Source: a virus
Strand: one strand, 5' to 3'
IMG/VR virus record: IMGVR_UViG_3300005077_000003
Coordinates: 113,612 to 177,611 of that record
DNA length: 64,000 bases
Of this stretch, positions 21 through 41,900 are shown in pieces (the first letter of the stretch is position 1; each line of letters opens with the position of its first letter). The notes beneath the pieces are model-generated. The model had not been told where the DNA came from and searched no databases. It saw only the letters and a list, made by a program, of their open reading frames with translations. The translations under genes were made by a program, and so were the position numbers.

Positions 21-3000
21 ATGACATTTCATCCGCAATACGGACATTGGTCTAGAGAAACCTTTTCAGATTCTGGCGGGGCAATATATGAAAACCCCGG
101 AGAGTTTGAAATACGTGGTGGCGTAACCAAGCTTATACCAGTAAATTTTAATACTGGAACTTATTCTTTTAATGCGCCCTGGGACCAAGTACCTGAATGG
201 CATATTAATTCTACAATGGATTCCAAGTCCATTGTAACAGGAGACTTTTTTATATATACTGGCACAACTACGTCATCCTATGGTAATATAGGTACATATT
301 ACAATAGTGCATTTTATACTAGCGGTAATCAATCCTGTTTTGTATTAGGTCTTGGTCCAGACGGTTTAGGATCTGGTGTAACAATTGAACTTGATACAAG
401 ATCTTTATGGGCAGCTCAAAGCGGTAGCTTAACAGGGACTGGAGACTGCGCCTTTTATCCAAGTATAATATTTGCGAGAAATGGTACCGAACTTAAATAT
501 GCGCAAATAGAAATTCGCCCAGATGGTTTAAGGATACCATATATATCAGGTGCCTATATACCAGGAGACTATAACGATGCACTAAGAGCAATTAGAATAA
601 TTAAGAATGGCGACGATATTATACTAATGACTCAAAAGGATGAACAGGTCCTTTATGTTAACGATGGTATGCAAGATTATTCTTCGGCAATTCCTAATGT
701 AGAAGACTATATCGCATTTGGTAGTTGGCCACAAGTACAAAGTAATAAATATTATTCTGGAGCAGCAGGAAACGCAAAGTTTATAGATTTTTATACTTCT
801 CCTAACTCATCTGGCTTTCAAGGTATGGCCTTATGGGATGATGTTAAAATAAATACTGGCTTAGCTGTTTCAATTAGACCAGAAGATTACTTCCCGGATT
901 ATCCAGGCGGGGATAAGGTTATATACACTGATGAATGGCATCCAAGCAATAGTATAACATCATATCAAAATGCTTTTGTTTCTGTTATAGGGACAAGTGG
1001 AGGTAGAACAAAAGTAGAAGTAGAATATCTTGAACCACTTGGTGATTACGGCGATAAGCAGTGGACTCAATATTCTGAATACTTAAATATAACTAGTGGT
1101 CATAATGAAACCTATTACTTAGGCTTAACTGACATACCAGTTCAAAGTGATAAATTTGGTAATGCATTAAGATTTAAGATAACTTCTACAAAAGCCGCTT
1201 TTGATCGTGGCGTTCCACCAGAAGTAGATACTATAACAGTAATAGCAAACAATAATGCAAATGTAGGTATTATAAAACCAAACTGGAAAATGTCTGCTCT
1301 TCCAAAAGAGCATATAGTATATCCAGACATTATAGCTCACGATAAGTACATACCAAAACCAAGCCCCCAAGATATTTGGTTCTTACATAACGAAGATGGT
1401 ATAGATAATATAGCTTGCAATACCTATATAAGTCAAGCACAAGTAGGATTACTTAGTGGATTAGTTACTGGTACTTTAACAGATTTTGATACTGTACCGC
1501 AGGGGCTTGTCAAAATAACTGACGGTATATATGGTAATGCATGGAGTAACTTTGGATATAGCGGTGAATATGTAGCAGTATGGGAATCTACTAATTCATA
1601 TTTTACCGGCTCATCCGGCGATGGTGGGATGGCTGAAGGCGAGCTACTTGATATATATTCTATATATCCCACTGGAGCTATGACATTAGCTTACGGTACC
1701 CATTCAGTAAAATATAGTATTTATAAATATAGTGACTTTGATGGTGTAGAACGTAAAGCTCAAAAAGTAAGAGTAATTAACTATAACAAAGAAACTACAG
1801 ACTCAAGCTACTATGATACATGGGTTGGAATGCATATTAATAATATGCAAGTTCCTAGCAAAACTGGTACGCAAAGGCAATTTGGTATAATAGAAGGCAT
1901 AATCAAAATACCAAAAGGTCCTGGTGTTACTATTGCTCTTCATGAAGGAGCTACAACTTCAAAAGTTTTCCTTAAAGGATCTGAGTATCGTACGCCAAAA
2001 CCATTTGCTTGTGCCACAAAATATTTTAAAACACATACAGGAGAAGGGCAAAACGGTCCCACCTACGCTTCATTTGGAGTATTACCAAGAAGCACTGGAC
2101 TCTCAATTCCAAACTACTATGAATACGGAGAATGGACAGAGCCATTTGATAGAGATAGAGTAGACGAGTTTATACTATATAGCGTTACTGGATATATAGC
2201 AGACCACTCATATATTATATATAGTGGTGGTGACGTAACTAACTGGAGAATAGGCGCTGGCATTACTGGTGGCGCTCAAATAGCTCTCAACTGGGGTACT
2301 GGTTGGGGAGAGTCCGGCACACTAGGTACAGTACAAGAAATAAATGAAAATTTCAATGAACAAGGGTATGTTGTTGATTACGTCCCAGTAAGGAGAAATT
2401 CATTATTGTTCGAAGGCTGGTTCAGGCCATATGGAATTAGAGATCATACCGAAACAGAGCAGCTATTAGCTTCACTAACTGACAACCATGCTTCTGCGAG
2501 AGGAATGCATGTATACCTATCAAGAGATGGTTCAATAAGAACTACCGTACAAACCGCTACGTGCTATGCATCATTTGGATTAATGGGCGACAGCGTAGTT
2601 GCGTCACCAGTTACAAATGAACTAAACTCAAAAGAGTATAGAGTTTTATGGGGCAACTGGAATCATATAGGGATATGTACAGAATTTGCTGCAATAGGAG
2701 ATGGTAATATAGCATCAAATCAACCTGCTGCACCAATAGATCCATATACTAGAGAAGTATTGCATGGTGCCAGGGCATCAAAAATATACTTAACTCTTAA
2801 TGGCAGAATAGTTGATGAAGTAGATTGTTGTTATGATACATATAGCAAATTAAATTATAATAGTGGAGCATTAGCTGCTGGATATCCTCCAGTAGATGCA
2901 GTAAAAGATTCTTTACCCCCATTAAAAATGTTAGCCGCCAGGACTGGCGCATTTATTTCTACCATTGGGTCTGGAGTATATACAGATTTTGACCACGTCA

Positions 3001-5156
3001 GAATGAGCGTAAGAGATAGTGCTGACGTGCTTACAGACATATTTACACTTGGTAGTAAAGACACACCAGGTCTCCTATCCCATAAGAATGCGCCAAAGCC
3101 ATTTGCTCCAGTCGCTAGTGGAGTATCCCATTGGGAGCTTGCACATATATATAGATTTGATGAGCAATTAGATAAATATAATTTACTGGATGACGGGTTT
3201 GCTCCTGGCCACGCATTATTAGCGGGGTGGCCGACATTAGCCTCTGGTACTTCAGAACTTGAACCATATGAAGCAGACCCAATATATTTTATAAGTGAAG
3301 ATACTGGTCCAGATGGAAGGAGAGCTCTTCGTATAGGTCCAGGTGCACGCATTGATATTCCATGGAATTCATTTGATGAAAGACTATTTAACGGTCCCTA
3401 TTCTATGGATTATTCTGGTAATTATATAGTAACAGGTACTTCTCATTATACTGGCTATATGGCAGATAGAGGGTATGCTTTTAGCAGACAATGCTCCGAC
3501 TCTGCTCCAAGAATGGGAGGATGGTTCAAGCTTAATAAATATCCAACCACAGGTATAATGGATCTTTGTACCTTTGATGAGTTTGGAGCCCCGGAAGATT
3601 ATGGTAAACATCAAGTTTATATGGGAGTTGATTATACTGGAGGCTTTAAACTTGGTACAAGATATAACTTCTCTACAACAAATGAGGTAGGCCCATATCA
3701 TGCCAATGTTGGTGTGCTTGACTTAAATACCTGGTACCATCTTGGTCTCAACTTCTCTTTAAGAGAGAATATGATTGAAGTAGCCAATAGAAACCTATGG
3801 AAACTATACTTAAATGGTGAAAGAGTCTGGCAAGCAAGTATAAGCGCAGGAACCGGGGGTGGTTCAGTATTAAGCCAAGGGCGGGCAATGGCTTACCAGG
3901 GGATTCAGGGCTATGGAGCAGGCACTAATTTCTCTAAGTTTAGAGTAGGTGGAGACCTTCCCAGAACAGGAGCAACCCATTCTTGGTCATACTGCTATGG
4001 CGATATAAGCGTACAAGATTTCGTTATAGGATACCAGCTACAGCTAGATGCCACCGGCGATTCAGTAGGAGACACCAGCCAATGGGACTGGGCAGCCTTA
4101 GCAAGCACCGGGCAAAAGTATGGACGAGATGAGATAATGGTAGCCAATGGAACCACAGTAGCTACTATATCTGGTGGTCCTGGTACTGGTACTGCATACT
4201 ATCCCGCCACATTATATGAAGATGCTGGTGAGCAATTAGTTTTCTTTACTGTCAATAGAGGTAATGATTATGAGTCTCTATTAAATAGAGGTTTAGCACT
4301 ATACCCAGAGGTACCATTTGTTAATGCCGCATCATATTATGTAATATACCAAGATGACAATTCAAGAGAAGTAATAGGATCTACTGATTCCCCAATACAA
4401 ATTGGGGATACTGTTCCAAGTGAAGGAGTAAATCTCGCACTTGTAAATATAAGCTCGTGGGATCCAGAGAAGTCTATATCAACATTTAATTTGTCAGATA
4501 GGACATATAGTAATATTACTCCAAAAATATTTGGCGATAGATACCTATCATTTGATACTATATCTGGTAGTATGATATCACGCCAAGCCACTATGACTGA
4601 TAATGTTAGGGTATCAAGTATCCCAGTATATTCTAATAATAGTAGTATATCAAATCCTGGTTACTTTATGCACCAGATAGGAGATGATAAAAAGGGCGTA
4701 TATATTAAGAGTGCATATGGGCATGCCAGTGCTTCAGGTGATTTAGTATTTAGTAATCTTGATAAGATCAATAACGCGATTTCAATAAAAGATGTTGATG
4801 GTAATGAAATTGATTATGAAACATTCTCCTATAAACTAATCGCAACTGGTAGTTTTAATAATATTCAACTTCAAGACGGCACTTTCGCTGTTACCTTGGT
4901 AGGCCAAAAACAAACTATTGGCCAATCTGTATTCATTCATTATCCATCAATAGACTATAGGAATGGTTACATAAACCTACAGGATAAAGAAGTATATAAT
5001 CCAATACCAGTTATGAAGCATATTTATACAGATATGTCTACTCCATTTAGTGGAGAGTTTTCTACTAATTATGGAATATTTAAAAACAAATTTGATATAA
5101 CAATATATGGAGCTACCACTGGCGAATTAATGACTGATAACCAAGGATCACTATGA
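21..5156 (+). CDS. Giant virion structural protein (1711 aa) with LamG/concanavalin-A-like jelly-roll domains
   Basis: Long ORF. LamG-like signatures LLFEGWFRP...WNHIGI...LTLNG and MGGWFKL...TWYHLGL...KLYLNGE. G/S/T/Y-rich beta-type composition. First gene of a coupled operon that ends in a fibre gene. Confidence 0.6.
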   Translation: MTFHPQYGHWSRETFSDSGGAIYENPGEFEIRGGVTKLIPVNFNTGTYSFNAPWDQVPEWHINSTMDSKSIVTGDFFIYTGTTTSSYGNIGTYYNSAFYTSGNQSCFVLGLGPDGLGSGVTIELDTRSLWAAQSGSLTGTGDCAFYPSIIFARNGTELKYAQIEIRPDGLRIPYISGAYIPGDYNDALRAIRIIKNGDDIILMTQKDEQVLYVNDGMQDYSSAIPNVEDYIAFGSWPQVQSNKYYSGAAGNAKFIDFYTSPNSSGFQGMALWDDVKINTGLAVSIRPEDYFPDYPGGDKVIYTDEWHPSNSITSYQNAFVSVIGTSGGRTKVEVEYLEPLGDYGDKQWTQYSEYLNITSGHNETYYLGLTDIPVQSDKFGNALRFKITSTKAAFDRGVPPEVDTITVIANNNANVGIIKPNWKMSALPKEHIVYPDIIAHDKYIPKPSPQDIWFLHNEDGIDNIACNTYISQAQVGLLSGLVTGTLTDFDTVPQGLVKITDGIYGNAWSNFGYSGEYVAVWESTNSYFTGSSGDGGMAEGELLDIYSIYPTGAMTLAYGTHSVKYSIYKYSDFDGVERKAQKVRVINYNKETTDSSYYDTWVGMHINNMQVPSKTGTQRQFGIIEGIIKIPKGPGVTIALHEGATTSKVFLKGSEYRTPKPFACATKYFKTHTGEGQNGPTYASFGVLPRSTGLSIPNYYEYGEWTEPFDRDRVDEFILYSVTGYIADHSYIIYSGGDVTNWRIGAGITGGAQIALNWGTGWGESGTLGTVQEINENFNEQGYVVDYVPVRRNSLLFEGWFRPYGIRDHTETEQLLASLTDNHASARGMHVYLSRDGSIRTTVQTATCYASFGLMGDSVVASPVTNELNSKEYRVLWGNWNHIGICTEFAAIGDGNIASNQPAAPIDPYTREVLHGARASKIYLTLNGRIVDEVDCCYDTYSKLNYNSGALAAGYPPVDAVKDSLPPLKMLAARTGAFISTIGSGVYTDFDHVRMSVRDSADVLTDIFTLGSKDTPGLLSHKNAPKPFAPVASGVSHWELAHIYRFDEQLDKYNLLDDGFAPGHALLAGWPTLASGTSELEPYEADPIYFISEDTGPDGRRALRIGPGARIDIPWNSFDERLFNGPYSMDYSGNYIVTGTSHYTGYMADRGYAFSRQCSDSAPRMGGWFKLNKYPTTGIMDLCTFDEFGAPEDYGKHQVYMGVDYTGGFKLGTRYNFSTTNEVGPYHANVGVLDLNTWYHLGLNFSLRENMIEVANRNLWKLYLNGERVWQASISAGTGGGSVLSQGRAMAYQGIQGYGAGTNFSKFRVGGDLPRTGATHSWSYCYGDISVQDFVIGYQLQLDATGDSVGDTSQWDWAALASTGQKYGRDEIMVANGTTVATISGGPGTGTAYYPATLYEDAGEQLVFFTVNRGNDYESLLNRGLALYPEVPFVNAASYYVIYQDDNSREVIGSTDSPIQIGDTVPSEGVNLALVNISSWDPEKSISTFNLSDRTYSNITPKIFGDRYLSFDTISGSMISRQATMTDNVRVSSIPVYSNNSSISNPGYFMHQIGDDKKGVYIKSAYGHASASGDLVFSNLDKINNAISIKDVDGNEIDYETFSYKLIATGSFNNIQLQDGTFAVTLVGQKQTIGQSVFIHYPSIDYRNGYINLQDKEVYNPIPVMKHIYTDMSTPFSGEFSTNYGIFKNKFDITIYGATTGELMTDNQGSL

Positions 5157-8100
5157 TATCTAATAGAGCAATAGCACATGCTAGGGAAATAATTTTGCCT
5201 CATACTACAAGGCCTGTTGGGGTTCTATTATTTACTGATCCACTATATCCAAATAATAGTGTTGATTATAAAGTAAGTTTAACCACAACACAAATTGGTA
5301 TATATACTAGTGGTCAAGATCCATTTATGGTAGACTACGTTGGTAAAACTATAAAGCAAGTAGCTGCTGAATTAAGCAATTCGCCATTTCCAATAGAAGT
5401 AAAGTCACTTGTAGATATATCTTATTTACAAGAAGGAGAGCTGCTAACAAGTGGGACCACTATACCATCTAGTTTTAGCCTAATAGATAGAAGTATAGAC
5501 GGGAAAGGCGCTATAATAAGAGCGCGTCGCTGGTCAATTAGTTATAATAAACAAACAACAGTAGAAGTAAAAGCGCCGTACAACACAGGTTCTGTGCAGC
5601 CATGGTATGCAAGAATTAGCAATGGTTCATTTTCTAAAATAGAGAATGCCACATTATATTACTTTGGCGTACCAGAATATAAAAACCAAGCATGGTCTAC
5701 CAGATTTGGTTATCCCTTTGTAGACGTAGAAGGAGAGAGAGTTAATTTAGTAGGTGATAAAAAAATAAGAACTAATAGGTCACCTATATATTGGAAAGGT
5801 AACAATATAGTTATTACAGATATATCTGGTAGTAGAGTATATCCATCTACTATTATAAAAGATGTTGATACTATTAATGGAATAATCTATTTAACAGATG
5901 GTGCTAGGGTTGGCAGCAATGCATTAATTCACTATACATATAAAGAAGATAATCTAATATATAGGGGGGTGAATTTAAATGCACATTTCTCACAGAATCC
6001 GCAGATTCTTGATATGTATGTTGTATACTATGCGCTACCAATAAAATCTACTGCAGGTGGGGAGAGAGAAAAAGGTATATATCATTCTATTGGTAATAGT
6101 ATACCAGAAGCAATTAATAATATAACAGATGTATCTATGGCAGAAGCTATTGCTATACTTGGAGCAATACATGTTACATCTAATTTGGGATATGAAGAAT
6201 CAAATATAATTGATACAAGAAGTTATGGCGGCGGCCTTACTGAAGATAGAGTTGGTAAACTAGCAGAGAAAAGATTCCCGCAAACTCAATACTTTAATGA
6301 TCTAAGCACATATGATGGTATACCATATCATGGATCTGCAGCAGTTGTGGTAGAACTACCAAAAGAAATTACTAACGTAATGTCATTGGAAGACTTGAAA
6401 AGAGCTACCAAAAAGTTTATTGCTGCAGGTGTATATGTAATCATGGACTATGAGAACATATCAAATATATGGTATCCAACTGAAAGAACGCCTGATATAT
6501 CGCAGGTAAGTTTTGGGCTTAGAAGAAGGGCCGAACCAGAAAGAAGAAACTATCTTGACTTTACAACTACCTGGTATGACTCTGGTGATGCAATTGCTGC
6601 TGGGTTCGGATCAAGCTGGGCATATCAATATCAGGTTAAGCTAGCTGTTAGGGGTAACCCTTTATATTATACACTATATAATGATGTAGAAAGATCAGAT
6701 GGACAAGTACCAACATGGAAGCTATGGATACAAAGCGGTCAAGGCGGCGGTCTTGATGCCTACCATGTTATGTGGGGATATGTAAGAAAAGATTGGGGGT
6801 ACCCATATAACTGGGAAACAGAACACTCATTTGGTCATGATACTCCATACTATGATCCTCTAGTAATAGGATATGCAACAGATTACAATACAATTTCTGT
6901 AGAAGTTAAAGAGCCTGAAACTGATGCTGCAGAATATTTCTCTATTTCAATGGAAGTTAGGGGAACAACAGGAACCCCAACTATAGTAAAGAAAGATTTC
7001 TGGGGTGCATGTTTTAAATGGGTAAATGGAGTTCCTGTATGGAACAATAGTTTAGCTGCCGGTGCACTTAATAAGAACCTCCCTTCTGGTAGTTCTTTTG
7101 TTAAGTATGTTAGAGATGGTTGGTATAGATGCGGTATAACTGTACACTTAACAGGAAGTGATCTTGATTATTTTAGTGGTGATTATAGGCAACTATTCCT
7201 CCGCCCTAATGATCCAGGAAGCGTTGGTCCTGTTTTACCAGGTATTGGAGATTTTGGTAAAGGAACTTACTTTGCTAGACCTCAAGTTCAGGATACTCCA
7301 AACTTCACCTATTATCAAGAGATACCTGGCATGTGGGATGTTACTCTTAAAGATGATGATCCACGCAAAGATAGTTTTCATACACTATTAGATAAACAAG
7401 TAGGACCAACAGGTACTGCACCAGGTTGGATCAACTCTAGGTTAAGACTCCCTAATGATATAACAACTGGTTATAATGCATTAACATATGATTGTACTCC
7501 TGATGTAAAAAATAATCATATACATATAGAGCCGGGCCAAACTTATTATGTAAAATATCTGCGTAGCTCTCCACATGCGAACTTCTCTTGGGAAGAGCTA
7601 AATAATGAAGGTAAGTGGGTAAGCAAAACACATATAGATAAAAGAGATGTACCTGCTAATACTATAGCTGCTGGTAAGATAACTTTCTCAAGTAGAGCCG
7701 AGAAAGAGATCCGCAATTTTTCTGGTATTGCCCCGTTTAAAGCAAACACTATTGATAGCTTAATAGATAAAATAATACCAGAAGTACATCAAATATATTT
7801 AGACCTATCCGCGCTTAGTCTTACAGGTACTTCATACCAAGTAGCCACAGGTGTGGTATCAAATATATCAGACGGTACAATATCATTACCAAACGTAGGA
7901 ACAACAACAGAACTGCTAACAGATTTGTCATACAAACAATTTTTACTTAATACCTATAACATAGGTAGTATGGTTGCTAACTATAAATCTGTTGCTCTTA
8001 GTACAAATCCTTTAGCCGTAGGAAGGGCGCTCTTATTTGCCAGCGGAGTTCTATACACAAGTGATTATCCAAGAAGATATGATTGGAACACTAAAACACT

Positions 8101-9433
8101 TATACCACATATAAATACTCCATATGATTTTATGGATGAACTATATACATATTCAAAATACACACAAGATGTAATTAATGAATATGTATATGGAAGATAT
8201 TATCCAACATCTACTGCGCCAACAGAAGCAGATCCTTTATTAGCAGTTGTACAATCTGGTATATTTGCTTTAGCCACTCAGTTTGAAGAAGACACTACTG
8301 CTCCAGGCGGATGGGATATTGGTGGTCAAATAAGATCTCCATTCTTTAGAGCCTCATCTACAACAGAATATCCTTTAAGCGGAGATTACGCGGAAACAGC
8401 TGAAGACATAAGCAATATGTATCTATCAACTGATTACGTAAGAGCGTATGCAAAACTTTATACTGCCCAAGATAGACATACTAATGCAGAGTTTGCAAAT
8501 GCTACAAGTATACAATATAATATATCACCGCTTAATATCGCGGTATCAGGCATAAATTCAGCTATACATCATTTTGAAAGATATTACTTTGCTCCTAGGT
8601 TTAGTGGAGAATACAAAACCCTAAACTGGCTATATACATATAATAGACACGGGAAATTAGCTGGCAGATTTGTAAGGAACATAACATCTGCTATTGATGA
8701 TATCTATTTTGGAAATGGAGAATGGGCTGGTTGGTATGGCGAAAAAGGCGGCGGCTATGCAGGCCCTCCACAACAGTTTGAAGACACTAGATTTAGCGGC
8801 CAATTTAGTAGACCAGAAGGCGGAAGTGTAGTACTATCAGGGCATTTCCCGCTTATGATAAGTGGATATAAGCAAATTCTTGATGAAATGCGCCCGCTTG
8901 TTGAAGCAAATATGCAGTTTGGTGGTATTACAACACCTGAAATGGTAGACTTAATAAGAGGCTATCTATGGATACCAAGGCGTGCTGCAAGGAATTACCC
9001 GTACTTTGTTGATGCATTCAATCAAGATGATATTGATACATTTGAATTAGGTATGACATCATTACTAAAAGGGTCTTTTACAGAAGACGGACAATTCTTT
9101 GAAAGTACCTCTTTCAAGCATGAGCCAGTAGGGCAGCCATATTTCCCAGTAGAAGTATTTAAGGGAGCTGTTGATGCAGTAGAGTACTATAGACAAATAG
9201 ATGATTCTTACAATGAAGCTAGGTGGATAGCCATATTAGATGGTATGTGGAATACAGCTACTGGCCTATATAAGAATACCTATGGATATCCAACAATGCT
9301 AACCTTTGATAATAGTGGTGATTCTGGATCTAAATTACTTGAAGCTGCCCTACCTATATTATCTCTTAAGCCCGATCAATATACTAGTGGAGATCTGTTC
9401 ACATTAACTGGTGGTATGTCATCTAGGATATAA
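5153..9433 (+). CDS. Large virion structural protein (tail/baseplate-like, 1426 aa)
   Basis: ATGA overlap with the upstream gene; structural-operon context; no enzyme motifs recognised. Confidence 0.5.
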   Translation: MISNRAIAHAREIILPHTTRPVGVLLFTDPLYPNNSVDYKVSLTTTQIGIYTSGQDPFMVDYVGKTIKQVAAELSNSPFPIEVKSLVDISYLQEGELLTSGTTIPSSFSLIDRSIDGKGAIIRARRWSISYNKQTTVEVKAPYNTGSVQPWYARISNGSFSKIENATLYYFGVPEYKNQAWSTRFGYPFVDVEGERVNLVGDKKIRTNRSPIYWKGNNIVITDISGSRVYPSTIIKDVDTINGIIYLTDGARVGSNALIHYTYKEDNLIYRGVNLNAHFSQNPQILDMYVVYYALPIKSTAGGEREKGIYHSIGNSIPEAINNITDVSMAEAIAILGAIHVTSNLGYEESNIIDTRSYGGGLTEDRVGKLAEKRFPQTQYFNDLSTYDGIPYHGSAAVVVELPKEITNVMSLEDLKRATKKFIAAGVYVIMDYENISNIWYPTERTPDISQVSFGLRRRAEPERRNYLDFTTTWYDSGDAIAAGFGSSWAYQYQVKLAVRGNPLYYTLYNDVERSDGQVPTWKLWIQSGQGGGLDAYHVMWGYVRKDWGYPYNWETEHSFGHDTPYYDPLVIGYATDYNTISVEVKEPETDAAEYFSISMEVRGTTGTPTIVKKDFWGACFKWVNGVPVWNNSLAAGALNKNLPSGSSFVKYVRDGWYRCGITVHLTGSDLDYFSGDYRQLFLRPNDPGSVGPVLPGIGDFGKGTYFARPQVQDTPNFTYYQEIPGMWDVTLKDDDPRKDSFHTLLDKQVGPTGTAPGWINSRLRLPNDITTGYNALTYDCTPDVKNNHIHIEPGQTYYVKYLRSSPHANFSWEELNNEGKWVSKTHIDKRDVPANTIAAGKITFSSRAEKEIRNFSGIAPFKANTIDSLIDKIIPEVHQIYLDLSALSLTGTSYQVATGVVSNISDGTISLPNVGTTTELLTDLSYKQFLLNTYNIGSMVANYKSVALSTNPLAVGRALLFASGVLYTSDYPRRYDWNTKTLIPHINTPYDFMDELYTYSKYTQDVINEYVYGRYYPTSTAPTEADPLLAVVQSGIFALATQFEEDTTAPGGWDIGGQIRSPFFRASSTTEYPLSGDYAETAEDISNMYLSTDYVRAYAKLYTAQDRHTNAEFANATSIQYNISPLNIAVSGINSAIHHFERYYFAPRFSGEYKTLNWLYTYNRHGKLAGRFVRNITSAIDDIYFGNGEWAGWYGEKGGGYAGPPQQFEDTRFSGQFSRPEGGSVVLSGHFPLMISGYKQILDEMRPLVEANMQFGGITTPEMVDLIRGYLWIPRRAARNYPYFVDAFNQDDIDTFELGMTSLLKGSFTEDGQFFESTSFKHEPVGQPYFPVEVFKGAVDAVEYYRQIDDSYNEARWIAILDGMWNTATGLYKNTYGYPTMLTFDNSGDSGSKLLEAALPILSLKPDQYTSGDLFTLTGGMSSRI

Positions 9434-12192: not shown

Positions 12193-12340
12193 AATATGGA
12201 GTACTTGTAGAGATTTACTAAATCTTAGTGGCGGTGTATATTCAGTAGACATACATCCAAGTGGCTCTTATGCAGTAGTTTCAAATAGCAACACATTCTC
12301 CTACAATAGTGTTGGAGACATAATTTGTATTAACCTATAA
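12155..12340 (+). other. Cryptic open frame with no ATG/GTG/TTG start, encoding a WD40-like VYSVDIHPSGSYAVVS segment
   Basis: The frame is open from 12155 to TAA 12338-12340, which overlaps the next ATG (TAATG). It fills the only large gap in the operon. An out-of-frame ATG lies at 12196. Confidence 0.3.
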
Positions 12341-24230: not shown

Positions 24231-24263
24231 AAGTATTTTAATTATATGTAGTATATATTATAT

Positions 24264-25082: not shown

Positions 25083-25118
25083 AAAAAAATTAGGGAGCCA
25101 AAATTGGCTCCCTTTTTT
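25083..25118. terminator. Bidirectional rho-independent terminator between the convergent structural and glycan operons
   Basis: A7 tract, AGGGAGCCAA/TTGGCTCCCT 10-bp inverted repeat, T tract. Confidence 0.85.
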
Positions 25119-32005: not shown

Positions 32006-32775
32006 TTGAACCTCCTAGCCCATACGCTTGGGGCGTTTTTCCAGTTATTAATAGGAATTTTTATAATAGGAATATAGTCTGGACTATTATATTTAGTTCT
32101 AAATGCTGGTTCGTCCTCTTCGGTCTGTGCGTAATGAATAGGTGCATGATCTCCTGTGGTACCTGGCATATGGGTAATATCTAAAATAACTTCATTAGTA
32201 AAAATTATCTTTGCAGCATCTTGTTGAGCTCTTATACTAAAGTCAACAAAGGCCATGGCAGTACCTTGAAATACAGAATCAAGTCCACCAAGTGATCTCA
32301 TATATTCTGTTTTTATCATAGAGGTAGGAAGAAATACATAACTGTCATCTATGTTATGTGAAGATATGCCAGCATGAATATTTATATGGCATTCGTTGTA
32401 ACTGTAAATACGAGCAGATTCATGTGCTACCATTCCTAAAATAAATTTAGGTTCTTGTTTTATAGTGTTTTCAAATATTGTTATGCATTGTGATAGTAAA
32501 GTTGGTCTAAATAATCCATCATCAGTAACATCTATTAAAATTTCTCCTTCTACCATCTCGAGTCCAATATTAAAACACCTTGTAGGAGATCCAAAGTCCC
32601 TAACTAATTTTATGTTTTTATATTGCTCTAATTCTTGTGGTAACAAATAAGGAGATACTATAATAAGTTCAAATGAATTGTTTCCTATTGCATTTATTAA
32701 TGATGTAAATACATTTACCCAATTTTGGGGCCTAATACCAGGCATTACAAATGAAACTTTAGGTTTATCATACAT
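32002..32775 (-). CDS. GT-A (GT2-like) glycosyltransferase, tandem paralogue 1
   Basis: VSFVMPGIRP, TDD motif, LGGLDSVF, VWARRF. Confidence 0.8.
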   Translation of the reverse strand: MYDKPKVSFVMPGIRPQNWVNVFTSLINAIGNNSFELIIVSPYLLPQELEQYKNIKLVRDFGSPTRCFNIGLEMVEGEILIDVTDDGLFRPTLLSQCITIFENTIKQEPKFILGMVAHESARIYSYNECHINIHAGISSHNIDDSYVFLPTSMIKTEYMRSLGGLDSVFQGTAMAFVDFSIRAQQDAAKIIFTNEVILDITHMPGTTGDHAPIHYAQTEEDEPAFRTKYNSPDYIPIIKIPINNWKNAPSVWARRFK

Positions 32776-33682
32776 TATTTAAAATCTTTGACCAGAACGG
32801 CACTGGTGAGTAGTCTTCTAAATACCTAAGAAGACCTGCGGCAGCTATCTTATTTCGTTCTTCCTCGTGCATTGTGTAATATTCAATTTTTTCTAAAAGA
32901 TCTTTGGGAGTAGTATATTCTACATACTCTTTATCTACATGTAGCCTTTCTCTTGTAAAAGGATTCTCTCCTTCTAAAAGTAGACAGCCACAAGCCAAAG
33001 ATTCAAAGACTCTATTTTTTAGTTGCAATTTCCCTGATGGAGAACTTGGCATACCAATAGATATAGCAGATCTTCGTAATAATTTAGCGTACTCTTCTAT
33101 TGGCATTTTAGATATTCTTTTGCCAGGAGAATACGTAACTGGAATCTTAGAAAGAGACAAGGCCTGAAGATAAGGTATTCTTTGAGAATAAGTAGACCCC
33201 ATAAAAGAAACTGGGATATCTTTTGCTTCAGGGTAGAATAAACTAGGACATTGCGGTGCCGGTAAAGAAAGTAGTCCACCCCTTGCTAAGTTAGTTAATT
33301 TTTCATCTGGAAAATCAAAGCACGTATGAAGATCTGCATACGGATTTGTGTCATTCACAACCTTATAAATCCAAGGCCATACAGTATCCTGCCATAAGAA
33401 TATTTTCTTTCCACCTATCTTTGCTAAAGATCTTGTAGTAGGATTTGAGGGACAGTCTCCAATATAAGTAAAAGCGTAATAGTCTGGATGACTTGTTCTT
33501 TCTAATAAAACGTCATCAATATGTTTACCATTTATGAAAGATTCATCTGGGTAAAGGCATTCAACAGAATCAAATAGTTTGCATGCTATTGCTGATTTAT
33601 AGTATGTTTGATATGTATCAGATAGCAACATAGCAGGGTTGCCATCACACCAACGTTCTGAAACTAATATTAGACTGGACAT
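32768..33682 (-). CDS. GT-B glycosyltransferase (CgeB/Glyco_trans_1_2-like)
   Basis: DIPVSFMGS...R, RSAISIG, KNRVFESLACGCLLL, YTTPKDLLEKIEYY...ER.KIA..G. Confidence 0.8.
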   Translation of the reverse strand: MSSLILVSERWCDGNPAMLLSDTYQTYYKSAIACKLFDSVECLYPDESFINGKHIDDVLLERTSHPDYYAFTYIGDCPSNPTTRSLAKIGGKKIFLWQDTVWPWIYKVVNDTNPYADLHTCFDFPDEKLTNLARGGLLSLPAPQCPSLFYPEAKDIPVSFMGSTYSQRIPYLQALSLSKIPVTYSPGKRISKMPIEEYAKLLRRSAISIGMPSSPSGKLQLKNRVFESLACGCLLLEGENPFTRERLHVDKEYVEYTTPKDLLEKIEYYTMHEEERNKIAAAGLLRYLEDYSPVPFWSKILNNV

Positions 33683-35496: not shown

Positions 35497-36036
35497 TTAT
35501 TTTTCGTTGTAGTAATCTCCATATTCTACTAGAATAGAAGAATTTCCATGAGTCGCAGCATAATATGCATTTCTATATGTACTAAATATCTCTTCTGGCT
35601 CTTTTAGTTCATATATTTTTATATTATCACACATAGACCTAAATGCTTCTGAGTAATTACCTACGTGTTGGTGTTGTGGATGTATAGGTCTCTCTGAGCC
35701 TATACTTACTTTTATAATAACTCCTGGCATAAATGGCCTATCAGCCATTACTGGTATTTTATCTAAATGATTTACTATTTGATTTGTTGCTAGCAAAAGA
35801 AAGTTCCAGCGTGGATACACACTAATAGGTATCATTCCATCAAGAGCAAGTCCAATAGATAGCCCCATCTGGAACTCTTCGCATACGGGCATTTCTAATA
35901 ATTTTTCTTTTGGAATATCAGCAAAAGTATTTGACATAGCAGTCCCTGGATATGCTACTGCCTGACCTAAGAAGATAACTTCTTTCTTTTCTGCAAGCCA
36001 ATCCATGGTTCGCTTCATTTCATCAACATATTTCAT
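35497..36036 (-). CDS. ThDP-dependent E1 beta / transketolase pyrimidine-binding subunit, short (179 aa)
   Basis: VIFLGQAV, LLEMPVCEEFQMGLSIGLAL.G..P, NQIVNHLDK, HPQHQH; no C-terminal transketolase domain. Confidence 0.8.
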   Translation of the reverse strand: MKYVDEMKRTMDWLAEKKEVIFLGQAVAYPGTAMSNTFADIPKEKLLEMPVCEEFQMGLSIGLALDGMIPISVYPRWNFLLLATNQIVNHLDKIPVMADRPFMPGVIIKVSIGSERPIHPQHQHVGNYSEAFRSMCDNIKIYELKEPEEIFSTYRNAYYAATHGNSSILVEYGDYYNEK

Positions 36037-36641
36037 TAGAATTGTACCCTCTTACCTGCGCCAGCATGGGGATATTTATTTTTATAATCATAATATATTA
36101 TATGTTTTAAGTCTTTATATGGGAGTTCTTTCATTCCCCAAGTATTCTTTGTGTCAGTGCAGACAGAGAGACCGTTATTTTCCACTATAAATGTTATAGG
36201 TAAATTAAAGTTTTCTACATATGTAATACACTCATGGAATTGTCCTGTCACATAAGCCATGTCACCTAGAAAACAATATACATGAGTATCTGCACTTTTG
36301 CGCTTTATTGATAAAGCTACACCTGTAGCAATAGAAAGACAGCCTGTAACAATACCAGAAGAGAAGATATTATAGTTTGGATATTGTAAAGCAATAGATC
36401 TACCATTCAATATGTCTTTCTTGAGTTCTTCTGGAGGAACTCCTTTAAGAAGACATTGGTAGTGACTACGCCAGGTACAAAAAACCCAATCTTGTTCACG
36501 TACTTTTTGAAAAATCTCAATCATCTTCTCTTCATTATTAGAGTAAAGATGGATTGGTGCTCTTATGTGAGCGGCATCAAATTCGGCGGCAATATCCGTC
36601 TCAAAATCTATTAGATCTTGTGCTGTTAGGTTTGTAATCAT
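36036..36641 (-). CDS. ThDP-dependent E1 alpha-like subunit, short (201 aa)
   Basis: DWVFCTWRSHY, SGIV, GVALS, FLGD...G.F.E...N..LPITFIVENN ThDP-binding motif. Confidence 0.85.
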   Translation of the reverse strand: MITNLTAQDLIDFETDIAAEFDAAHIRAPIHLYSNNEEKMIEIFQKVREQDWVFCTWRSHYQCLLKGVPPEELKKDILNGRSIALQYPNYNIFSSGIVTGCLSIATGVALSIKRKSADTHVYCFLGDMAYVTGQFHECITYVENFNLPITFIVENNGLSVCTDTKNTWGMKELPYKDLKHIIYYDYKNKYPHAGAGKRVQF

Positions 36642-38128
36642 TATCTATTAGCGTAAGTTCTTTTTAAAGAATAAGACAGCATATCTTTTAACTCATCTGC
36701 TGCTCTAGGACCAAATTTCTTTGTCATCATATTAATATATCTTTCATCTGAATGATATGTGTTAAAAGCAAAGTCTCTGAATTTGAGTATCTCTCCTGCA
36801 GATAAGAATTCAGTAGGAAGGTTAAACGTTTCTGCTGAATATTGAGAATATCCTACCCAACTTACTCCATTATTTTCTGGCAATAATTCTGGAGCACTAA
36901 CAGAAATTTCTCTATGTAATCTTGATCCAGGGTATGCCATAGCAGAACAAAAACTTGCATACTCAGTATTTAGTTCTTGAGCTAAAGCCAATGTTTCTTT
37001 CATAGTATCTATATTTTCCCCAGGAAGACCAATAATATAATTACCTATTATACTTATATCATAGTATCTAATTTTATTTACTATATCCACTATATCAACA
37101 TCTTTGTATTGTCCTTTAGCACTTTCAAGACGTATATTCCTATTAGCAGACTCTATCCCAAGAGCAATCCAATTTACTCCCGCTCTCTTTAGAAGAGAAA
37201 GATATTCATCTTTTATAGTATCTATCCTTGCATAACACCATATATTAAATTTATGGCCTCTTTCTACAATAAGTTCACAGATACGAGCAAAGTGATTTGG
37301 GTTTAAAACAAACATTTCATCAGCTATTTTAAGATTAGTAATCCCCATTTCTGCTATTTTATCGAGTTCTGTTATTACAAATTCTGGACTCCAGTATCTA
37401 ATTCTTGGAGTACCAAATGGTGCATTTATCATACAGAACGAGCAGCTATATGGACAGCCTAAACTAGTATAAATGCTTGCAAATGGTTGGCGTTTATTAT
37501 TATTTGTCCAACTTAACCAATTATTCGCCTTATATCTTGTAGATGGAAGCAGGTCCCAAGCTAATCCTGGTAGTTCCTCATCAAGATTTTTTATTAATTC
37601 TGCTGGTTTAGTAGATACAATATCTTTTGATTTAGAATAGTAATATAGTCCTGGAACTGTACTAAGTTGAGTTTCGTCAAACATATTTACTTGAAGAAGC
37701 TTATCTAGTGTAAATAGGCCCTCTCCTTTAGCTACAAAAGCAGCTTTATCATCTAATATCGTTTTTTCTGGTAGAGCAGAAGGATGAGCTCCTACATATA
37801 TAATTGGTATATTACTTCCAGATAAAGCTGCAGAAATATCCATTAGCCCTACCATATTAGGAGTAGATGCTTGAGGATTTTGTCCATATGCGACAAGAGC
37901 AACAAGTCTAGGGTTAATGTTTACTATTTTTTTTGCTGCAGTTGTTGCTGAAATATTTTCTGCTTCTGTATCTAAAACACCAGCTCGATGTCCTTTCTTT
38001 CTAAGGCCGTTTGCTAATAAAGATATCCATATTGGTGGCTCTATTGCAGAAAGCCTAGTACTCAGAGTTTGGTATATCTTTTTTGAACCATTTGGATGAA
38101 CAAGAAGTAAATCTATATTATTATTCAT
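36641..38128 (-). CDS. B12-binding radical SAM enzyme (class B methyltransferase-like)
   Basis: IEPPIW, VGAHPSALPE, KGEG; SLGCPYSCSFC; DEMFVLN; LGIES; YIIGLPGE. Confidence 0.9.
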   Translation of the reverse strand: MNNNIDLLLVHPNGSKKIYQTLSTRLSAIEPPIWISLLANGLRKKGHRAGVLDTEAENISATTAAKKIVNINPRLVALVAYGQNPQASTPNMVGLMDISAALSGSNIPIIYVGAHPSALPEKTILDDKAAFVAKGEGLFTLDKLLQVNMFDETQLSTVPGLYYYSKSKDIVSTKPAELIKNLDEELPGLAWDLLPSTRYKANNWLSWTNNNKRQPFASIYTSLGCPYSCSFCMINAPFGTPRIRYWSPEFVITELDKIAEMGITNLKIADEMFVLNPNHFARICELIVERGHKFNIWCYARIDTIKDEYLSLLKRAGVNWIALGIESANRNIRLESAKGQYKDVDIVDIVNKIRYYDISIIGNYIIGLPGENIDTMKETLALAQELNTEYASFCSAMAYPGSRLHREISVSAPELLPENNGVSWVGYSQYSAETFNLPTEFLSAGEILKFRDFAFNTYHSDERYINMMTKKFGPRAADELKDMLSYSLKRTYANR

Positions 38129-38840
38129 ATTTAGTATCTTTTAAATTATTAAGTTTATTTGCAGCTTCTATAATGCTAGATACGCATTGTCTATAAATTG
38201 TTGACGGATGATTTGTTTTAATATTTACTCTACGTTCAATATATGTTGTATCTATTTGAGACTTACCTAGTATAAAGTGCATATGCTCATTTATAAATGG
38301 TAGTCTTTTTCTTCTATTAATAAGTTTTGCTATATCATTAATATAGTTGTCACTATAGTCAAATTCAAAACATGGTAATGATATATAGCCTACTGTTTCT
38401 ATCCATCTTTTGTGTATAATAGGATGACTTGCAAACCCTTCTTCATTTCCACCAGCAGTTCCTACTAAATCATCGCCTGATACTAACCATAATTTATCTA
38501 TCGAACTATCAAAAAAATCTATTATAATCTTATCCCAGCTGAGTGTTCTTTGTATTAGATCATCTCCGCATAAATATATTATATCTTCTTTAACATCTTG
38601 GTATAGTATATCAAGCATTGCTGAGAAGACTATTCTAGGTCGTACAATATAGTGAATTTGATCTGGAAAGCTTTCTTGAAGAGGTAATACAGCTGTTAAT
38701 GATAATAAGTCATCATCATCTATGTAAAGATATAATTTTAAATTAGATATATCATCAGCAGTATTAACTACTGATTGCCAAAATCTAATTAGCTCATTAG
38801 GCCTATTTCTTATAGGCATCAGCATAGCTATCTTAGCCAT
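38121..38840 (-). CDS. GT-A (GT2) glycosyltransferase
   Basis: IAMLMPIRNRP, YIDDDD, LCGDD, HPII...W..VG, YSD. Confidence 0.8.
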   Translation of the reverse strand: MAKIAMLMPIRNRPNELIRFWQSVVNTADDISNLKLYLYIDDDDLLSLTAVLPLQESFPDQIHYIVRPRIVFSAMLDILYQDVKEDIIYLCGDDLIQRTLSWDKIIIDFFDSSIDKLWLVSGDDLVGTAGGNEEGFASHPIIHKRWIETVGYISLPCFEFDYSDNYINDIAKLINRRKRLPFINEHMHFILGKSQIDTTYIERRVNIKTNHPSTIYRQCVSSIIEAANKLNNLKDTKYE

Positions 38841-38842: not shown

Positions 38843-39787
38843 CTATATATTTGTATAAGAAGTAAGAGTTCTGCTAATAATTTCATAGCATTTTAATAGT
38901 TCGGCTATTCCAGAATCCAAAGTATAAATTGGCTTCCATCCAAGTGATTCAATTTTTTTATTAGATACTATATAGTCTCTTTTATCGGGATCAGTTGCAA
39001 TATTATCTTTCTGTATAGAGAACTCTGGAATAAATTTTTTAATTCTTTCTGCAAGTTGCAATTTAGTTATGTTAGTATCAGATAATCCTATATTATAAGT
39101 TTGACCCGACATTTTATCATAGTTTTTTATTGCAAACTTAAATGCCCTAGCTACATCTTTTACATGGATATAATTTCTATTAAATTCCCATTCAAATAGT
39201 ACAATATACTTGTCTCGCATAGCTTTTAATGTAAAGTCATTTACCAATAAGTCTATACGCATTCTAGGAGATGAACCAAATACTGTTGCAAGTCTAAAAG
39301 ATACACCTCCAGTAGATAATATATGGTCTTCTGCCATACATTTTGTTTTTCCATAATGGCTAATTGGATTAAGGGGTGTTTCTTCTGTACAAAATACACC
39401 CTTTTCTCCTACGCCATACCCGCTATTTGTATTAGGATATATAATTTTTGTTTCAGCCCGTTTATGTTCAAGGATAGCCTTAATATGATTATAATTAACA
39501 TCAAGAGCTAATTGCTTATCCCGCTCACAAGCTGGAAACCCGACTATAGCTGCTAAAGGTATGATTATATCAGCCTTGTTTACATAACTGAGCAATTTCT
39601 TGATATCACGAACATCTCCATATACAAATGTAAAATCTTCGTTATAACAAAGGTCCATAAATGGAGTTTGCTTATACATAAGATTGTCATATACAATAAC
39701 TTTATGTCCAGCATTAATTAGCTCATATGTGAGCGTAGAACCTAAATATCCAGCTCCACCAGTAATCAAAACCTTAAAACTCGACAT
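38843..39787 (-). CDS. NAD-dependent nucleotide-sugar epimerase/dehydratase (extended SDR)
   Basis: VLITGGAGYLGS, LAAIVG.P.C, YGKTK (YxxxK), FRLATVFG.SPRMR.DLLVNDF. Confidence 0.9.
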   Translation of the reverse strand: MSSFKVLITGGAGYLGSTLTYELINAGHKVIVYDNLMYKQTPFMDLCYNEDFTFVYGDVRDIKKLLSYVNKADIIIPLAAIVGFPACERDKQLALDVNYNHIKAILEHKRAETKIIYPNTNSGYGVGEKGVFCTEETPLNPISHYGKTKCMAEDHILSTGGVSFRLATVFGSSPRMRIDLLVNDFTLKAMRDKYIVLFEWEFNRNYIHVKDVARAFKFAIKNYDKMSGQTYNIGLSDTNITKLQLAERIKKFIPEFSIQKDNIATDPDKRDYIVSNKKIESLGWKPIYTLDSGIAELLKCYEIISRTLTSYTNI

Positions 39788-40541
39788 AAGTTACTCCTCT
39801 TTTTTGTATTACCTTTGTTGCGCATTCGTTTGCATATTTTATCGCAGCAATTATATCTAAATTTAATAGGTATTTTATAGTTAATGCCGCTAGGAATGTA
39901 TCGCCTGCTCCTACACAGTCTTTCATTGGTACAGATGGAACGTGAAACTCTTCATTTTGATATATACATCCTTTATCCCCTCTAGTTACAATTACATTAT
40001 GAGCCAGTATTGGATTTAAATCAAACACATGTTTAGTATTATTATATTCACTTGTATTGAGTTTTATGAAGGTAATGTCATTACACCATCTGCCCAAGAT
40101 TTTTTTTGTGTCCAAGAATGTAATTGGATAATAAACAGCTATTTTTGATATATCAGATTCTGTTAAAAATCCTTTGCAGTAATCTGATATTATAACAGCC
40201 TTAGCATTTGGATAGCTATCAAATAGCTTATTAATATCACAGTGTTCTACTTTATCATCACCCTCATCTACTCTTAGCAACATACTATTAGTACGTTCTT
40301 CTACATACCTGGTCTTTGATATCTCTTTCCAATTATCATTAGTAATAATACCAGGTTTAGTATTTATATTGTTTATTTTTAGCAATGACTCTAGATTTAA
40401 TAAAGTATTCATAGCCATACCTGGATTGCTTTTCTGGCTAACTTTATTAAATACTAATGCTGGAGCTTCTGGGGCAATTCTATTACATGGTCCATAGATA
40501 AAATTATCTATACAACTTTCTCCAATGACAACTATTTCCAT
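39774..40541 (-). CDS. PfkB-family sugar kinase, HldE/RfaE heptose-7-phosphate kinase-domain-like
   Basis: VIGESCID.F.YG...R..PEAP..V, ISDYCKG, DCVGAGDTF. Confidence 0.85.
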   Translation of the reverse strand: MEIVVIGESCIDNFIYGPCNRIAPEAPALVFNKVSQKSNPGMAMNTLLNLESLLKINNINTKPGIITNDNWKEISKTRYVEERTNSMLLRVDEGDDKVEHCDINKLFDSYPNAKAVIISDYCKGFLTESDISKIAVYYPITFLDTKKILGRWCNDITFIKLNTSEYNNTKHVFDLNPILAHNVIVTRGDKGCIYQNEEFHVPSVPMKDCVGAGDTFLAALTIKYLLNLDIIAAIKYANECATKVIQKRGVTYVEF

Positions 40542-40545: not shown

Positions 40546-40959
40546 TTACCAACTTATTTCCCAATCTTTGAATTCACTAGCTAAACAATCAACTTTGTAG
40601 TCTTTACGCCCACCAATTGATTCTTGTATAATATTTTTCGCAGTATTTCTTATGCCATTAAGGCCATGTGTTAGTTTTAGGTTTCCATCGGAAAGCCCTT
40701 TTCTAACATTAGACTCATTATGCCATATATGTAAATTCATTTGCGACAAAACTATTATCGCACGAATCATTTCTGATTGTATACCTAGTAGTTCTAAATC
40801 ATGTAGTATATCTTTTATTTCCTGTGCATATTCTTCTTTATGCTCAGGAATAAAGACTTCTTTTAATTGTAAGATAGATAACCTATCTATCAATTCTGAA
40901 ACAGTTGGTAAATATTTTCTTTTGTTTTCATCCATAATATTTATAATATACTCGTACAA
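40546..40959 (-). CDS. Hypothetical helical protein of the glycan island (137 aa; start may be 40935)
   Basis: In-operon ORF with motif SELIDRLSILQLK. Confidence 0.6.
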   Translation of the reverse strand: MYEYIINIMDENKRKYLPTVSELIDRLSILQLKEVFIPEHKEEYAQEIKDILHDLELLGIQSEMIRAIIVLSQMNLHIWHNESNVRKGLSDGNLKLTHGLNGIRNTAKNIIQESIGGRKDYKVDCLASEFKDWEISW

Positions 40960-41900
40960 TGTTTTACTAATAATTCTGCATTATTACTTGGTAAATGTCT
41001 TTTTATAAAAGATTCTTTTATATATGATAGTGTTTTTTCGTCTTTAAAAGTAGTTGCCTCGGTGATTTTCTGTACCCACTCATCAATGTTATTGATATCG
41101 TCAACAACAAAGCCATATTGGGCAATATTATCATGTTTAACTGCACATCTATTAGATACAACTACTGGCAACCCAGCAACCTGTGCTTCAACAATAGTCA
41201 TCCCATATGTTTCTGTTCTAAATGGAGATACTAATAATGATACATTATTATACATGCTGCCGTAATGCTGTTGACCAATTATATTGATATTATTATTAAC
41301 AATAACTGGTTCAAAGTCTTTATATCCAACAATATTAAATTGTAATGACGGCATTTTAGATGCTATATTGTTAAGAATATCAAATCCTTTTACAAATGAT
41401 ACTCTAGACATTAGTATAGGACCATCTATGGCTCTACAATTATTAAAGTTCGAAAAATCTATACTTGGATATACTACTTCAGTCTTATAATTAAATTGGT
41501 CTTCTAATACAGATTTGAAATAATTAGAATTAGCAATAACTAAATCAGGTTTAAAGTTCTTATTTTGTAATTCACAATTAGAGCATTCTTTTGAACAAAA
41601 AGCAGTTATGCTTGGATATCCACCCTTTGAACAGATATGTTCATATGAATGAGCCATATAAACTAGCGGCTTATTTAATAAGCATGCAACCTGTTCTCCA
41701 TATGGAGTCCAGTTTAGTTGTGTAATAATAATATCAGAATCAACAAACTTTCTTAAACAAGAAAAGTCATTTAAATTAGTATTAGTAATTGTATAGCAAA
41801 TATGTCCACTATTTCTTAGTGCATTAATTAAGTTAATAGATGTTATTTCTGCACCACCAACTGGAATAGTTAGGTTATATGCTATATAAAGTATTTTCAT
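40941..41900 (-). CDS. GT-B (GT4) glycosyltransferase
   Basis: GGAEIT, IANSNY, RVSFVKG, ETYGMTIVEAQ..G.PVV.S. Confidence 0.9.
   Translation of the reverse strand: MKILYIAYNLTIPVGGAEITSINLINALRNSGHICYTITNTNLNDFSCLRKFVDSDIIITQLNWTPYGEQVACLLNKPLVYMAHSYEHICSKGGYPSITAFCSKECSNCELQNKNFKPDLVIANSNYFKSVLEDQFNYKTEVVYPSIDFSNFNNCRAIDGPILMSRVSFVKGFDILNNIASKMPSLQFNIVGYKDFEPVIVNNNINIIGQQHYGSMYNNVSLLVSPFRTETYGMTIVEAQVAGLPVVVSNRCAVKHDNIAQYGFVVDDINNIDEWVQKITEATTFKDEKTLSYIKESFIKRHLPSNNAELLVKHCTSIL

Follow-up and report, generated by a model that had tools for sequence, protein, structure and literature searches.

The final 64 kb of the 177,611-bp IMG/VR contig IMGVR_UViG_3300005077_000003 (referred to here as the window; its coordinates are used for all genes) contain a 16.6-kb minus-strand island, at 25340-41900, of 19 open reading frames (ORFs) that include genes for sugar synthesis, sugar tailoring and glycosyl transfer. 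Comparison with other viral contigs indicates that this island is a horizontally acquired cassette, mobile between unrelated large marine phage lineages, and so far it has been seen only in viral or metagenome sequence. The prediction that its enzymes build a rare deoxy, branched and methylated sugar into a chain is well supported, with the order of the steps and the sugar product deduced from enzyme families and motifs.

The 19 ORFs are transcribed from 41900 down to 25340, and because every junction among them is either an overlap or a gap of no more than 4 nt, we regard them as one operon. The coupled minus-strand arrangement proposed in an initial annotation of the window thus stands, as do its count of eight glycosyltransferases (GTs; five tandem GT-A paralogs together with the genes at 32768, 38121 and 40941), its list of sugar-synthesis and tailoring enzymes, for which families and motifs are confirmed, and its two further GT genes at 51.5-54.2 kb, which Pfam and PHROG matches locate at 51529-54150. 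A 19-residue segment with a Kyte-Doolittle hydrophobicity above 1.8 is found in none of the 19 island proteins, all of which are predicted to be soluble.

The core of the island recurs in syntenic order in 18 other IMG/VR contigs, 25-318 kb in length, which share essentially nothing else with this phage. This recurring core comprises the extended short-chain dehydrogenase/reductase (SDR), the AprD4-like enzyme, the thiamine diphosphate (ThDP) enzyme pair, the methyltransferase, the Fcl-like enzyme, the His-type DegT enzyme and two to four GT-A paralogs, and is usually accompanied by the kinase, the GDP-mannose 4,6-dehydratase (GMD), the CgeB-type GT and the 137-aa protein. T4-type gp23 capsid genes are present in at least two of the contigs (G008 and G009). 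In one lineage the cassette lies between the genes for ribonucleotide reductase (RNR) and a DnaB-type helicase, and in another it precedes proteins with peptidoglycan-hydrolase domains.

The phage itself, which is uncultured, is distantly related to Bacillus phage 0305phi8-36 (23% identity in one virion protein). Its contig, recorded as linear in IMG/VR, is a closed circle, in which the RNR gene that leaves the end of the window continues in frame at the contig start, where the RNR N-terminal segment is encoded; CheckV estimates 92% completeness. The genome is organized as two arms, a plus-strand structural arm of approximately 87 kb and a minus-strand arm that carries replication and nucleotide-metabolism genes and continues across the contig ends. 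Both run towards window 25.0-25.3 kb, where a strong bidirectional terminator lies at their meeting point, and the matches of the plus-strand genes in 21-24230 are to 0305phi8-36-type virion proteins and tail fibres. The convergence of the island on structural genes was therefore described correctly in the initial annotation, but the '25-kb operon' on which it was said to converge is the 3' end of the 87-kb arm.

A more complex relationship emerges when the convergence region is compared among relatives of this phage. These were collected with a 443-aa virion protein that adjoins the fibre; single-protein scans of viral contigs with this protein and with the 608-aa radical-SAM enzyme of the island returned nothing, and alignments were used instead. 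The relatives retain the structural genes, the fibre N-terminus and the sigma-like gene, and lack the island. The next gene after the sigma-like gene in L001 and L027 is a homolog of window 44845-45543, so window 24978-44844 (19.9 kb) is an insertion relative to these two. At the same junction the complete relative G001 carries an FkbM methyltransferase, an SDR and a GT2 gene, and L039 a GT2-like gene. Synteny of island and structural genes in relatives, which had been put forward as a check, is thus not maintained: the structural genes are kept and the island is absent or replaced by other cargo. From these alignments the junction is evidently a hot-spot for cargo, frequently but not invariably sugar genes, and varying sugar cargo beside the fibre would be expected of a surface under diversifying selection.

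Several other features of this junction are recorded here. The final gene of the structural arm, at 24264-24977 on the plus strand, encodes a 237-aa protein with sigma-70 region 4, and is kept in at least 12 relatives, directly ahead of the variable junction. In addition to the island, the 24978-44844 insertion holds a 215-aa ORF, a tRNA-Met, an HNH/tRNA-Asn remnant and an IMPDH/GMP-reductase-family gene (42794-43801; PF00478 4.9e-97, no CBS domain); the last of these stands beside the GDP-sugar island and may have a functional link to it. At the same junction L045 contains a NeuB-family nonulosonic-acid synthase and a 2-hydroxyacid dehydrogenase (L045:18740-20448, minus strand), implying a different sugar chemistry, and L046 contains a RuBisCO large-chain-like gene (L046:19860-21044, minus strand; PF00016 8.9e-41) and a HAD hydrolase (L046:18599-19219, minus strand).

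The absence of genes was assessed on the whole closed 177.6-kb genome, using six-frame ORFs and Pfam profiles, and is meaningful because the contig is a closed circle. ManB and ManC were not found and NTP_transferase PF00483 is absent, so the pathway must be fed by GDP-mannose from the host. GMD, which matches TIGR01472 gmd at 347 bits against a cut-off of 415 bits, would convert this to GDP-4-keto-6-deoxymannose. At the position of the Schiff-base Lys in perosamine synthase, the DegT-fold enzyme at 25340 has a His, which is shared by 12 of 12 cassette homologs; this substitution is the signature of the 3-dehydratases ColD and E1. The His-type enzyme, which is predicted to depend on pyridoxamine phosphate (PMP), would strip the 3-hydroxyl in the manner of ColD and leave a 4-keto-3,6-dideoxy intermediate. 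The Fcl/ColC-like enzyme at 27428 may then reduce this intermediate to a colitose-type sugar; its match to the Fcl family is 181 bits against a cut-off of 500, a score at which ColC and Fcl are not told apart. Alternatively, the ThDP pair may add a pyruvate-derived two-carbon branch at C-4, after which an SDR would reduce the product. Such C-4 branching would follow the logic of yersiniose synthesis, but with an enzyme that resembles AviB1/B2 and not YerE.

The ThDP enzyme is a split pair resembling the alpha and beta subunits of pyruvate dehydrogenase (PDH) E1, not a single-chain YerE-type acetolactate-synthase-like flavoenzyme. It matches the PDH E1 alpha profile at 1.4e-23, has a GDM...NN ThDP motif, and is 55-60% identical across cassettes. 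Its subunits, of 201 and 179 aa, are approximately 60% of the length of normal E1 subunits, and no E2 or E3 accompanies them. Phosphonate chemistry was considered in view of these small subunits and of PhpK-like radical-SAM matches, and was rejected: the best families are PDH E1 alpha and beta, and none of the 19 island proteins matches a phosphoenolpyruvate (PEP) mutase family in Pfam scans.

Further tailoring would be provided by C-methylation by the TokK-like enzyme, by an AprD4-like radical step paired with an SDR, and by the S-adenosylmethionine (SAM)-dependent methyltransferase, acting in O- or N-methylation. The radical-SAM enzyme at 33670 has the attributes of the TokK/CysS type, namely an N-terminal B12 domain, a CxxxCxxC motif (at residue 180) and full-length similarity to TokK, the match spanning residues 17-457, with both PF02310 and PF04055 present. 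The AprD4-like gene adjoins or stands near an SDR gene in most cassettes, and among GenBank phage records its enzyme is matched at no more than about 25% identity, in Streptomyces phage SF3. An ordered oligosaccharide is implied by the eight soluble GTs, which would assemble it in the host cytoplasm. The soluble cytoplasmic system for a rare deoxy, branched and methylated oligosaccharide that had been predicted earlier is in this way supported by enzyme families and catalytic motifs.

Table 1. Predicted features of the glycan island, its junction with the structural arm and the separate GT4 pair (window coordinates).
Feature	Coordinates	Strand	Evidence
GT4 glycosyltransferase, first gene of the operon	40941..41900	-	Glycos_transf_1 1e-11, Glyco_transf_4 1e-6
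Helical protein, 137 aa	40546..40959	-	Viral/metagenome sequence only; 75% identity in L012 and L020
PfkB sugar kinase, RfaE domain I-like	39774..40541	-	TIGR02198 9.3e-32; GAGD motif intact
Extended SDR (NDP-sugar epimerase/dehydratase/reductase)	38843..39787	-	Epimerase 4.9e-31; 42-56% identity across cassettes
Glycosyltransferase, phage family phrog_14945	38121..38840	-	3.7e-32
B12-domain radical SAM enzyme, closest solved relative AprD4	36641..38128	-	PDB 6fd2 3.9e-16; CxxxCxxC at residue 225
Miniature ThDP pair: E1 beta-like (179 aa, 35497) and E1 alpha-like (201 aa, 36036)	35497..36641	-	E1_dh 4.5e-16, Transket_pyr 5.6e-6
Cobalamin-dependent radical SAM C-methyltransferase, TokK/CysS/KedN5-like, 608 aa	33670..35496	-	TokK 3.8e-72, CysS 7e-56 (PDB), NF033712 5.7e-71
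CgeB-like Glyco_trans_1_2 glycosyltransferase	32768..33682	-	PF13524 1.3e-18
Five tandem GT-A paralogs	28956-29717, 29714-30568, 30462-31268, 31226-32005, 32002-32775	-	Mutual identity, motifs, AlphaFold2/Foldseek
SAM-dependent methyltransferase	28366..28974	-	Methyltransf_11 8.5e-5; kept in 13/13 cassette loci
Fcl/ColC-like GDP-4-keto-6-deoxyhexose epimerase/reductase	27428..28369	-	NF047922 GDP-L-fucose synthase 2.3e-53, under cut-off; YxxxK present
GMD	26460..27428	-	GDP_Man_Dehyd PF16363 7e-107, full length
DegT-fold PMP-type sugar 3-dehydratase (ColD/E1-like), final gene of the operon	25340..26473	-	Pfam DegT 2.6e-84
Bidirectional intrinsic terminator between structural (+) arm and island (-) operon	25092..25113		9-bp stem, 6 G-C pairs, T runs on both strands
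3' end of structural arm: virion proteins, 1386-aa fibre, sigma-like gene; candidate acceptors	21..24977	+	PHROG virion structural/tail fibre matches; 0305phi8-36 ORF171
GT4 and GT4-like pair (51529, 52981)	51529..54150	+	Pfam/PHROG glycosyltransferase

The five tandem paralogs are each about 255 aa in length and 28-33% identical in pairwise comparisons, with DD and GG.D as invariant common motifs; two of the ORFs probably start about 30 and 14 codons downstream of the longest-ORF start. An AlphaFold2 model of one paralog (pLDDT, the predicted local distance difference test, of 93) matches GT-A folds in Foldseek, with WrtF the best (E 2e-11), followed by polypeptide GalNAc transferases, RmlT, TarP and TarS, and the sequence profile of the family matches the spore-coat enzyme SpsA. 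The predicted structure thereby confirms the five as GT-A glycosyltransferases. The family forms about 60 clusters among 5.8 billion proteins, all unnamed and metagenome-derived, and tblastn found it in none of 50,697 GenBank phage records. It was also not found in a species-representative collection of cellular genomes by a pattern scan whose sensitivity is limited by the patterns used. For pattern scanning of the family a 10-sequence alignment served, one of 27 sequences being too diverse.

The most conserved protein of the cassette is the 137-aa helical protein at 40546, which AlphaFold2 models with a pLDDT of 91. It has 507 representative clusters, and its Atlas clusters are viral. Nothing meaningful matched it in Pfam, PHROGs, Foldseek against PDB or VIA-align wide, and its fusion partners are uninformative.

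The GT4 pair at 51529 and 52981 has a different history. Homologs stand beside the primase-helicase in G001 (44% and 27% identity), a homolog is also present in G005, and both of these genomes lack the GT-A family in searches run with a positive control. The pair thus belongs to the backbone of the lineage, independent of the island, and being conserved in the lineage it could supply priming enzymes. We note that G001 has a 147-aa ORF (L082:4252-4695, plus strand) between its two GT4-pair homologs, and that homologs 42-49% identical to it lie beside the cassette in L015, L018 and L021, hinting at a link between pair and cassette. The pair is part of a plus-strand four-gene unit (50700-54487) that is an island of opposite polarity within the replication arm. 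The first gene of this unit (50700-51473) is divergent from 50226-50699 on the minus strand, and their start codons abut with no intergenic space, which implies a mis-called start or promoters located within coding sequence.

The membrane and DNA-modifying functions sought in the same whole-genome survey bear on the acceptor of the glycan. Because three hydrophobic segments (19-mers) are the most that any six-frame ORF contains, Wzx, Wzy, Wzm, WecA and Gtr-type proteins are excluded regardless of family. The priming phosphoglycosyltransferase Bac_transf PF02397, the thymidylate-synthase homolog PF00303 and the C5-cytosine methylase PF00145 are absent from the genome in searches that included a positive control, and Tet_JBP PF12851 was not found in a search run without one. 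The statement that the window has no Wzx/Wzy, ABC exporter, priming transferase or base hydroxymethylase accordingly holds genome-wide.

Hypermodification of DNA or nucleotides, in which the GTs would sugar-coat phage bases against restriction as in the T-even, RB69/DLP3 and MT/TET-coupled systems, is in our view very improbable. The island and the GT4 pair do share an arm with the primase-helicase, RNR, an HD-domain nucleotidase-like protein and a DUF4406 deoxyribosyltransferase-like protein, and multi-sugar chains on DNA can be built by phage GTs (bioRxiv 10.1101/2023.12.21.572611; PMC13326640). On the other side, neither of the known acceptor-making routes, by a thymidylate-synthase homolog or by a C5-methylase with a TET-type oxygenase, is predicted to be encoded in the closed genome, the Tet_JBP result being subject to the missing control, and no known DNA glycan is as elaborate as 8-10 GTs and a branched, methylated deoxysugar would imply. 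The earlier exclusion of DNA for want of an acceptor base is strengthened by this extension to the whole genome.

Our leading guess, which we hold tentatively, is that the acceptor is the phage's own virion proteins, either the fibre or other surface proteins, and that these would be decorated while particles assemble in the cytoplasm. A self-contained cytoplasmic system would favour a virion target by analogy with mycobacteriophages, chloroviruses, mimiviruses and the Bacillus spore crust. The fibre-adjacent locus is hypervariable, the cassette is large and virus-specific, and the folds and profile closest to the GT-A paralogs include those of protein O-GalNAc transferases and SpsA. Nor is a position outside the structural arm an argument against this target, since the proven virion-glycosylating GT genes of F1 mycobacteriophages are far from the structural genes (PMC11256854).

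Other observations weigh against a virion acceptor. Sequence alone ties the glycan to no particular virion protein, and no acceptor-like protein was found to travel with the cassette when the cassette loci were compared. The island has the orientation of the replication and nucleotide-metabolism genes and lies downstream of them, and it converges on the structural arm without being joined to it. Given its arrival there by insertion and the two-arm layout of the genome, adjacency to structural genes, which the initial annotation took as support, is weak evidence for this target; L001 and L027 have no island, and elsewhere the cassette is found near RNR and helicase genes. Moreover, 3,6-dideoxyhexoses are familiar from bacterial O-antigens and nematode ascarosides, and the closest fold, WrtF, like TarP, TarS and RmlT, acts on host lipid-linked polymers.

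These enzymes introduce another explanation, possible although somewhat unlikely, that the host envelope is remodelled. The glycan would be built or extended at the cytoplasmic face on a host lipid-linked acceptor, such as an undecaprenyl-linked O-unit, lipid A-core, a capsule precursor or teichoic acid, and exported by a host flippase or ABC exporter and ligase. The altered surface during infection would provide superinfection exclusion, or prevent progeny from being trapped on debris. WrtF (a GDP-fucose O-polysaccharide fucosyltransferase), the prophage-encoded TarP, TarS and RmlT are soluble GT-A enzymes, and their action on host polymers means that missing phage membrane parts do not exclude a host-surface target, so that this argument of the initial annotation is weaker than it was put. 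The predicted sugar (3,6-dideoxy and yersiniose-like) belongs to a class typical of O-antigens; the island forms part of the early/replication arm, and its contexts elsewhere are not structural. The cassette also has an rfaE-like kinase, as do the GT-rich islands of pelagimyophages, for which modification of the host O-chain was proposed (PMC7029224). Set against this, a complete pathway with eight GTs far exceeds the known serotype-converting modules, and a cassette that moves between unrelated phage lineages would have to make a product suited to the export machinery of many hosts. In addition, the pattern scan found no GT-A homolog in the cellular genome collection, and neither a priming transferase nor a Gtr-type membrane protein is encoded.

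Some other cytoplasmic acceptor, or a free product, is quite improbable. The glycan would in this case be carried by a non-virion phage protein or a host protein, for example to disarm a defence or a receptor precursor, or be a soluble glycoconjugate or metabolite, or the pathway would act chiefly as a drain on host GDP-mannose. That no acceptor is identifiable from sequence is compatible with this, as are the varying contexts of the cassette between lineages and the 137-aa protein, the most conserved of the cassette, which matches no known fold. Multiple paralogous GTs instead favour an ordered oligosaccharide on a defined acceptor over precursor drainage, and we know of no precedent for such a free product or acceptor.

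Returning to the virion proteins as acceptor, a bolder and more doubtful scenario, which we think unlikely to hold in full, is that a GDP-linked C-branched, C-methylated 3,6-dideoxyhexose is the product of a virus-only mobile cassette, which polymerizes it on the virions of unrelated jumbo phages, with the GT4 pair priming a virion protein and swappable cassettes providing a variable outer glycan. This class of sugar is known from bacterial O-antigens and natural products. If the scenario is correct, a GT4-primed and cassette-swapped virion glycan would be the phage counterpart of core-plus-O-antigen, and would vary or shield the particle surface.

The recurrent, compact enzyme set yields a testable prediction of a 3-deoxygenated, two-carbon-branched, methylated GDP-hexose, and offers a defined cassette with which to address the products and targets of large GT-rich environmental phage islands. 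Among its members are an uncharacterised GT-A family and the miniature ThDP enzyme. Should the glycan be on virions, virion glycosylation would extend from actinobacteriophages to marine jumbo phages, and a widespread hypervariable island would be explained. Should it be on the host envelope, lytic phages would be rewriting O-antigen-type sugars with soluble enzymes alone.

Elsewhere in the replication arm, the RNR large-subunit ORF that spans the contig junction is 1896 aa in length (window part 59379-64000, minus strand), with an HNH endonuclease segment, probably an intein, at about residues 843-930 of the part encoded in the window. The primase-helicase (46573-50229, minus strand) is 1218 aa, compared with 835 aa for the G001 homolog, and PHROG endonuclease and RNR-like matches at its residues 218-367 suggest an intein or endonuclease insertion. 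For expression timing, a scan for the sigma-70 consensus gave fewer sites than the shuffled expectation, and no promoter motif common to the genes came out of a genome-wide k-mer search of upstream regions.

Among known systems, the GDP-L-colitose pathway of Gram-negative O-antigens (GMD, ColD and ColC) is matched by three adjacent genes for GMD, a His-type DegT enzyme and an Fcl-like reductase. The island differs in several ways: perosamine synthases give its His-type enzyme a better score than ColD does, there is no ManB or ManC, and branching and methylating enzymes are embedded, such that colitose may not be the end product. Branched-chain deoxysugars are formed with ThDP by YerE/YerF in yersiniose and by AviB1/AviB2 in avilamycin. 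As in those systems, the ThDP enzyme here adjoins genes predicted to yield a 4-keto-3,6-dideoxyhexose and is accompanied by SDR reductases, whereas its small subunits place it outside the YerE (acetolactate-synthase-like) family, and its function is a prediction. Protein particles are glycosylated without lipid carriers in chloroviruses and mimiviruses (the virions) and in the spore crust of Bacillus subtilis (SpsA and CgeB). These share with the island self-contained cytoplasmic synthesis of sugar nucleotides (with GMD in chloroviruses) and soluble GTs, and with the spore crust specifically the SpsA profile match and a GT in the CgeB-type Pfam family; they differ in being eukaryotic viruses or a bacterial spore, and the likeness is at the level of fold and family.

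A further system is the virion glycosylation of the mycobacteriophages Che8, Rita, Corndog and Myrna (Freeman et al. 2023, as related in PMC11256854 and PMC12619734). As far as these accounts describe it, that system also uses soluble, cytoplasmic phage GTs with no export machinery, and its GT genes need not adjoin structural genes. According to the same accounts its glycans have been shown on the C-termini of capsid and tail-tube proteins, whereas the glycan here is predicted from genes, and the mycobacteriophage operons have 2-4 GTs and little sugar synthesis, the likeness to the island being one of generic GT folds.

A parallel in gene content is offered by marine T4-like myophages, namely pelagimyophages and cyanomyophages, with their hypervariable 'host recognition cluster' islands (Zaragoza-Solas et al. 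2020, PMC7029224), and GT-rich hypervariable islands in large marine phages are thus already known. Those islands are likewise large, non-syntenic, near tail-fibre genes and different between close relatives, they are rich in GTs, rfaE-type sugar genes and radical-SAM cassettes, and the T4-type contigs G008 and G009 carry the cassette described here. The phage analysed here is 0305phi8-36-like and not T4-like, and its island is at the arm convergence on the replication strand, whereas theirs lie between VrlC and gp14 in the structural module. New to the present comparison are the mobility of the cassette across unrelated lineages, a specific and testable sugar chemistry, and an uncharacterised GT-A family expanded five-fold; that paper does not report the combination of a ColD-type enzyme, the ThDP pair, a TokK-like enzyme and five GT-A paralogs.

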